Below are positions 1-257 of a stretch of DNA of 257 nucleotides, piece by piece. A model generated the notes under the pieces. It was given only the letters and a program-made list of their open reading frames with translations, was not told the origin of the DNA and did no database searches. A program made the position numbers and the translations under genes. Position 1 is the stretch's first letter. Every line of letters begins with the position of its first letter. This DNA is from Escherichia coli (GTDB lineage: Bacteria > Pseudomonadota > Gammaproteobacteria > Enterobacterales > Enterobacteriaceae). The stretch lies in assembly GCF_003334255.1 (NCBI RefSeq), contig NZ_QOWU01000275.1, one strand, 5' to 3'.

Positions 1-257
1 GTGCGTTTTTCCGGGTCATAGTTTGACGGCACCTGGATGATGCGACCGCGGATATGGTAGTTCACCGTCATCTGCTGACCACCAAACTGCTCCGCATCCA
101 CCTGCATCCCCACAATGGCCGTGTTCGGGTAGCACTGTTTCACATCGATGATTTCGGTGTATGACGACCACAGCGTTCTGTTCTGCAGCTGGTCCGTGGT
201 GCTGTCCGCCGTCTCCCTGACCATCCGGATGTTAAAGGGGCGGGGAGGCAGATTATC
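1..257 (-). CDS. J: Internal fragment (partial at both ends) of a lambdoid phage tail tip / host specificity protein J (central tail fibre, lambda gpJ family). Complete codons span + coordinates 3-257 read on the minus strand; bases 1-2 belong to the next codon.
   Basis: Seen in sequence: the minus-strand frame anchored at position 257 is open for all 85 codons, while all three plus-strand frames contain stops (e.g. tag at 19-21, tga at 24-26 and 39-41). Translation is DNLPPRPFNIRMVRETADSTTDQLQNRTLWSSYTEIIDVKQCYPNTAIVGMQVDAEQFGGQQMTVNYHIRGRIIQVPSNYDPEKR. Recognition from memory, not a database search: the blocks NLPPRPFNIRM (+ coords 222-254), LWSSYTEIIDVKQCYPNTA (117-173) and YHIRGRIIQVPSNY (18-59) closely match what I recall of phage lambda J roughly 180-270 residues from its N-terminus. 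Codon usage and GC content fit an enterobacterial lambdoid tail module. Confidence 0.85.

Follow-up and report, generated by a model that had tools for sequence, protein, structure and literature searches.

A known allele of the lambdoid tail-tip gene J from Escherichia coli and its divergence from phage lambda

The 257-nucleotide stretch of Escherichia coli DNA analyzed here (hereafter the window) is an internal fragment of J, the tail-tip or host-specificity gene of lambdoid phages (central tail fibre, baseplate hub protein), and it carries a known, annotated allele of the J protein, gpJ. Very probably, the window is the J piece of a common lambda-like E. coli prophage of the class represented by Stx phages and strain 55989 (class B), and the differences that separate it from lambda are the ordinary divergence of two lineages under purifying selection at tolerant positions, rather than a localized adaptive or mosaic feature. 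J would encode a trimeric tail-tip hub and central-fibre protein, for which the window codes the last part of FNIII-A together with the neighboring strand and loop of the HDII-insertion domain. This part of the hub would bind the plug protein gpI and swing outward as the tip opens to eject the DNA. The 17 amino acid differences from lambda are fixed and linked; they accumulated between two old lineages (dS about 0.9) and arose under purifying selection at positions where the family tolerates change. A first-pass annotation of the window had described two patches of divergence from lambda; their appearance comes from a 30-codon stretch between them that has diverged unusually little.

The assignment to J is supported by the reading frame, by homology and by identical DNA in a complete prophage. 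One frame on the minus strand is open from end to end (positions 1 to 257; 85 codons without a stop) and yields the peptide DNLPPRPFNIRMVRETADSTTDQLQNRTLWSSYTEIIDVKQCYPNTAIVGMQVDAEQFGGQQMTVNYHIRGRIIQVPSNYDPEKR. This is also the frame of J in its homologues, with codons 170-254 complete and bases 1-2 forming the start of codon 255. BLASTP aligns the peptide with residues 171-254 of lambda gpJ (68 of 84 identical, E=1e-48), and phmmer aligns it with the gpJ chains of PDB entries 8iyk/9e7m (E~1e-43), which places the homology over the FNIII-A and HDII-insertion region. Megablast matched 251 phage records, and the annotations listed at the matching site name J, host-specificity, tail-fibre or tail-component proteins. 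Identity to the window is 100% in a single record, CP025907.1 ('Escherichia phage 204576'), and 96-98% in many Stx-converting phages.

In E. coli 55989, DNA that is 100% identical to the window lies within a 1157-amino-acid gpJ (WP_000514729.1), and the surrounding gene order is tape measure (H), M, L, K, I, J, lom and side fibre (stf). A siphovirus tail cluster likewise surrounds the match in a second exact context, the mosaic contig L010 described below. All six Pfam domains of the full gpJ architecture, namely FNIII-A, the Phage-tail_3 hub, two Ig/FNIII domains, the tip fibre and the C-terminal receptor-binding Ig domain, are present in the 55989 protein, from which, rather than from the 257 nucleotides themselves, this architecture was read. 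By analogy with the lambda structures (PMC10721106; PMC11101478), we infer that gpJ of this type forms a trimer at the tail tip, where it would serve receptor binding and tip opening.

Published domain boundaries place the window across the junction of two hub domains. FNIII-A spans gpJ residues 72-215 and is inserted between strands beta4 (65-71) and beta13 (216-223) of the HDII-insertion (PMC10721106); the same two domains are named HDII-ins2 and HDII-ins1, respectively, in PMC11101478. Window positions 120 to 257 (minus strand) encode J residues 170-215, the C-terminal third of this Ig-like FNIII-A domain, as located by Pfam, the published boundary and an AlphaFold2 model. Positions 3 to 119 (minus strand) encode residues 216-254, which hold strand beta13 and what comes after it in the HDII-insertion hub domain, as located by the lambda structure paper and the same model. 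Consistent with this placement, the match to the Pfam family FNIII-A_GpJ (PF24801) in the full-length 55989 protein covers residues 86-207.

Both domains have known roles in lambda. The plug protein gpI binds FNIII-A, the HDII-insertion and HDII of gpJ by beta-sheet augmentation (PMC10721106). When LamB is bound, HDII-ins1 rotates as a rigid body, and HDII-ins2, which rotates as well, determines the smallest diameter of the DNA channel in its open state (PMC11101478). The first-pass annotation had assigned the fragment to a structural N-terminal region rather than to the receptor-binding part of the protein, and this assignment holds, since residues 170-254 belong to hub domains about 800 residues upstream of the receptor-binding domain. 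The term 'structural' needs a qualification, in that the region lies in a portion of the tip that is displaced on opening (PMC11101478).

Our AlphaFold2 model covers J55-340, was built from a 28-sequence alignment and has a mean pLDDT of 83. Its best Foldseek matches are lambda gpJ chains (E between 1e-36 and 1e-39), from which it deviates by a global rmsd of 14-18 Å, so that local structure alone is trustworthy; three-dimensional mapping on this fragment was dropped because the orientation of its domains is unreliable. Locally, the model predicts strands at J177-183, 193-194 and 197-207 with pLDDT values of at least 90, followed by a strand at 217-222 that matches the published beta13, then a helix at 224-227 and a strand at 242-246, between which the pLDDT drops below 50 at residues 232-237.

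The comparison with lambda used the deposited J sequence (NC_001416 15505-18903; NP_040600.1). The alignment of the window peptide with residues 170-254 of lambda gpJ contains no gaps and shows differences at 17 of 85 amino acids, and the DNA differs at 51 of 257 nucleotides (80% and 80.2% identity, respectively), a distance at which it is not near-identical to the lambda allele. The differing positions of the peptide are 1, 13, 15, 17, 27, 48, 51, 55, 60, 63, 64, 65, 69, 74, 81, 83 and 84. According to the first-pass annotation, the differences fall mainly into two short patches whose flanks are near-identical to lambda, and the coordinates of these patches proved exact, with real differences inside both. 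The first patch, MVRETAD (positions 204 to 224, minus strand; peptide residues 12-18, J181-187), contains three differences, R182V, M184E and P186A, all of them non-conservative. The second, IVGMQVDAEQFGGQQMTV (positions 63 to 116, minus strand; peptide residues 48-65, J217-234), contains seven, L217I, V220M, S224A, S229G, V232M, S233T and R234V, of which only the last is non-conservative. The description of the flanks did not stand. Ten of the 17 differences sit in the two patches, and the other seven (G170D, K196R, L238I, L243I, N250D, Q252E and T253K) lie outside them. Five of these occur in the last 20 residues (66-85), where 12 of 20 codons differ, compared with 12 of 18 in the second patch.

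The chemically radical changes are R182V, M184E and R234V. The 85-residue segment (positions 3 to 257) carries a net charge of -1 in the window allele as against +4 in lambda. This shift of 5 per chain and 15 per trimer falls in the domains that rearrange on tail-tip opening. The glycine at lambda position 170 (window positions 255 to 257) occurs in lambda and only a few of its relatives; D is the usual residue of lambda-type J proteins, as it is that of the window, and the G170D difference is thus specific to lambda rather than to the class.

Grouping of the differences into two patches has no statistical support. A Fisher test on the boundaries of the patches themselves gives p=0.006, but it is circular, and boundary-free permutation tests over the 85 residues revealed no significant clustering, whether by the longest difference-free run (p=0.11), the variance of gaps (p=0.105) or an 18-residue scan (p=0.43). 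The pairwise alignment that had been suggested as a check therefore affirms the individual differences and not the two-patch structure. A better description is that of one low-divergence stretch (peptide residues 18-47, with one amino acid and five nucleotide differences from lambda) inside a background that is evenly diverged by about 20-25% at the amino acid level. In bins of 50 amino acids, the J proteins of 55989 and lambda are 50-88% identical through residue 500, and the 80% of the window is typical. The neighboring tail proteins of 55989 are at a comparable distance from those of lambda, with amino acid identities of 78.5% for H, 79.8% for M, 77.2% for L, 87.2% for K and 69.8% for I.

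The low-divergence stretch corresponds to J codons 187-216 (positions 117 to 206, minus strand; DSTTDQLQNRTLWSSYTEIIDVKQCYPNTA). Only 5 of its 90 nucleotides differ from lambda, against a median of 22 per 30-codon window, which makes it the lowest of the 570 sliding windows of this length in the first 600 codons of J. Four of its 30 third positions differ, where about 13 would be expected. The same island is evident when other members of the two classes are compared: in 12 of 12 cross-class pairs, formed from four lambda-type genes (lambda, mEp460, cdtI and Chlobot) and three class-B genes (55989, VT1-Sakai and 1720a-02), there are 4-6 nucleotide differences over these codons versus a median of 20-21. 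The sliding pS falls to a minimum of 0.149 (0.211 for codons 187-216 themselves), compared with an overall value of 0.536 (p ~0.03 by permutation). In the more distant phage mEp515, nucleotide identity of J rises only mildly over the island (0.578 vs 0.492).

At the window region, the 120 homologue clusters listed fall into two linked haplotype classes. One is the lambda type, with R.M.P..K..L..V..S..S.VSR..L..L..N.QT at the sites that differ, and the other is the Stx-phage/55989 type, or class B. By the haplotype table of these clusters and by diagnostic-site painting, the window belongs to class B, for it carries V182, E184, A186, I217, A224, G229, T233, V234, I238, I243, D250, E252 and K253. 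Its R at peptide residue 27 and M at residue 51 are minority states within this class, the commonest class-B peptide having K and L at these sites and being otherwise the same. Residues of the two patches are nearly monomorphic within each allele class, across dozens of clusters.

Genes of this kind are widespread. Of 5426 complete E. coli genomes searched, 4410 have a J-like match, with a median of two copies and as many as 14, and identity to the window among E. coli genome records is bimodal (1650 at 95-99% and 2532 at 80-90%). Twenty-eight records are at least 99% identical to the window; all 25 of those listed are 100% identical and annotated as gpJ, including 55989 and several ETEC strains. 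The gpJ of the 55989 prophage, those of ETEC and other prophages, and that of CP025907.1 thus represent the same allele (257 of 257 nucleotides identical), and the J genes of long-tailed Stx-converting phages and their relatives, such as Stx2a_WGPS8, VT1-Sakai, Lys8385Vzw and JLK-2012, belong to the same class, at 96.5-98.4% nucleotide identity. These matches bear out the suggestion of the first-pass annotation that the window holds a distinct J allele from a lambda relative. Identity with an already characterized J protein would have counted against that annotation; identical proteins annotated as gpJ do exist, but our search found no experimentally characterized protein with exactly the window peptide.

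Judging from their sequences, the two allele classes recombine often. One example bearing on the window is contig DAERCG010000051.1 of GCA_019002765.1 (L010), which contains the 257 nucleotides of the window with no differences. Its L, K and I genes are of lambda type, being 92, 93 and 83% identical to lambda versus 76, 87 and 64% identical to 55989, and the C-terminal half of its gpI, which contacts gpJ, is almost identical to that of lambda. The J gene of this contig (4001-6321) is itself lambda-type over residues 1-146. Because this mosaic carries the identical DNA, the source of the window is not assignable to one prophage type. The gpM of L010 is only 41-44% identical to both the lambda and the 55989 proteins, and so represents a third type.

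Other J proteins also change class within the hub region. P0085 and P0091 do so at roughly residues 272-330. In P0081, P0107 and P0128, a lambda-type J carries a short class-B tract at about residues 250-264 (D250, E252, K253 onward), whose left edge lies inside the window (positions 6 to 17); this is a short conversion tract of natural origin.

Purifying selection acts on the window, and in this respect the window is no different from the rest of J. For the first 600 codons, a Nei-Gojobori comparison of lambda with 55989 gives pN 0.140 and pS 0.536, with dS about 0.94. The corresponding values for the window are pN 0.111 and pS 0.468, for a raw pN/pS of ~0.24, or an omega of ~0.16 after Jukes-Cantor correction. 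Moreover, the substitutions occupy positions that vary across the family. In an alignment of 108 representatives at 41-65% identity, the family entropy over 500 amino acids is 2.03 at positions that differ between the two alleles and 1.66 at positions that agree (Mann-Whitney p=5e-4); the window taken alone gives 2.03 and 1.56 (p=0.054).

In the first patch, conserved and variable positions alternate strictly along J181-187 among the 108 relatives, with entropies of 0.58, 2.47, 0.00, 2.42, 1.18, 2.37 and 0.23 for residues 181 to 187. This pattern partly supports the idea that the patch forms one face of a beta-strand, but the predicted strand stops at R183 and residues 184-192 form a loop in the model, so that the patch comprises a strand end and a turn. 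Docking of the side tail fibres on FNIII-A, which would have supplied a partner for this patch, is excluded by the structure of Ur-lambda, which places the collar of Stf where gpV meets gpM (PMC12617516).

The second patch, according to the model, combines conservative exchanges of aliphatic residues within beta13 with an A/S change in the short helix and changes in the low-confidence loop. An indel at J230 occurs in 59% of relatives, which together with the low model confidence at 232-237 indicates a loop of variable length. Two residues of this segment, beside the family indel and with pLDDT below 50 in the monomer model, are exceptions to the rule that the differences fall at variable positions. 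Residue 234 (positions 63 to 65) is Arg in 94 of the 108 relatives and in lambda, and V throughout class B. At residue 232 (positions 69 to 71), each of the 108 distant representatives has Pro, but lambda has V and the window M.

The differences from lambda look neutral or nearly neutral, lying as they do in the hub part and outside the receptor-binding part of the protein. The first-pass annotation had judged their functional significance to be small, and our data agree, with changes at family-variable positions, purifying selection, and an allele that occurs naturally alongside lambda-type partner genes. Functional neutrality is nevertheless a matter of interpretation, and the segment may have a modest functional effect, for its domains contact gpI and move on opening, R234 is conserved in most of the distant relatives, and the radical changes R182V, M184E and R234V and the charge shift from +4 to -1 also speak against strict neutrality.

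We also considered explanations that would give the substitutions a more special origin. It is very unlikely, in our estimation, that the patches are surface sites under diversifying selection, which might serve, for example, to escape host defences directed at the tail tip or to tune its opening. The radical charge-changing substitutions do concentrate in the first patch and at R234V, and the domain is mobile during infection; however, the pN/pS of the window is the same as in the rest of J, clustering of the differences is not significant, and the near-monomorphic state of the patch residues in each class points to old fixed differences rather than to ongoing diversification. Even less credible is a recombination mosaic, wherein a third and more remote lineage donated both patches to a lambda-like J. 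Mosaicism of lambdoid J genes is demonstrated, but this proposal is largely refuted by the observations that divergence in the patches equals the gene-wide background, that synonymous differences are equally dense in the flanks (peptide residues 1-17 and 66-85), and that the anomaly of the region is its conserved stretch and not its divergent ones.

A further proposal is that the substitutions are compensatory, having co-evolved with the phage's own gpI or gpL, such that the tip parts of the two lineages cannot be mixed. This proposal draws on the augmentation of beta-sheets by which gpI binds FNIII-A, the HDII-insertion and HDII of gpJ (PMC10721106), and on the fact that gpI, at 69.8%, is the most diverged partner. 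The natural L010 mosaic, a prophage known from its sequence, runs counter to it: identical window DNA is paired there with lambda-type L, K and I, including a gpI whose C-terminal half is near that of lambda, and this pairing argues against co-adaptation of the partners. In addition, the change from one class to the other falls within the hub region in several J proteins, and beta-augmentation is mainly a backbone interaction. We therefore regard compensatory co-evolution as improbable, and ordinary lineage divergence under purifying selection as the explanation to retain.

Several possible causes of the low-divergence island were evaluated. Exceptional constraint on the protein does not account for it, as the family entropy of the stretch is merely the 144th lowest of 470 windows. 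A structured RNA or regulatory element behind the silent-site conservation is not supported: the conserved stretch matches no Rfam family at E<=1 and folds no more stably than shuffled controls (z=+0.33; 128 of 200 shuffles fold at least as well). An overlapping gene is not favored either, since the only other open reading frames of the window, one of 51 amino acids at positions 16 to 171 (minus strand) and one of 36 amino acids at positions 54 to 164 (plus strand), cover positions 117 to 206 only partly. Because the classes recombine often, the simplest reading is that the island represents an old gene-conversion tract, probably one common to both classes, or a recurrent crossover site, with chance as a further possibility.

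A second stretch of low divergence occurs outside the window, near J codons 331-360 (L002:6484-6573), with 2, 0 and 0 fixed differences per 10-codon bin against a mean of ~5; there, the protein is highly conserved as well (pN 0.028). A more speculative scenario, which we consider very unlikely, would make codons 187-216 and 331-360 crossover 'joints' that are conserved at the nucleotide level for exchange of tail-tip modules, or would have the charge-reversing changes R182V, M184E and R234V (+4 to -1 per chain), located in the domain that determines the minimum width of the open channel, alter DNA ejection between the lineages.

The importance of the window is small, given that it holds an allele of a well-studied phage gene that has already been sequenced and annotated. 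What is gained is a corrected description, in which one conserved stretch replaces the two divergent patches, together with a short list of recombinants that occur in nature. The latter, known from genome data, suggest that hub segments of the two J lineages are interchangeable, which may interest engineers of lambda-type tails.

Among structurally known proteins, lambda gpJ (PDB 8IYK, 8K35, 8XCG and 9E7M) has the same domains over residues 170-254 and the same gene order in matching loci, and differs from the window allele in the charge of the segment (+4 vs -1) and in the non-conservative changes R182V, M184E, P186A and R234V. The tail-tip hub protein of phage T1 (PDB 9L9P) shares the hub-domain architecture (E=3e-11 to the peptide and E=3e-20 to the fold model), as does T5 pb3, each at ~40% identity or less. 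T5 pb3 combines HDI and the plug in one protein, relative to which FNIII-A is an extra insertion of gpJ (PMC10721106).

One class-B gene used in these comparisons is interrupted. The J of the Stx1 prophage VT1-Sakai (L004, AP000400.1) is annotated in two pieces, at 394-1569 and from 1446 onward, as 'truncated by a mutation', and its alignment reveals a single-base gap at nucleotide ~1110 of the gene, with stop codons after it.
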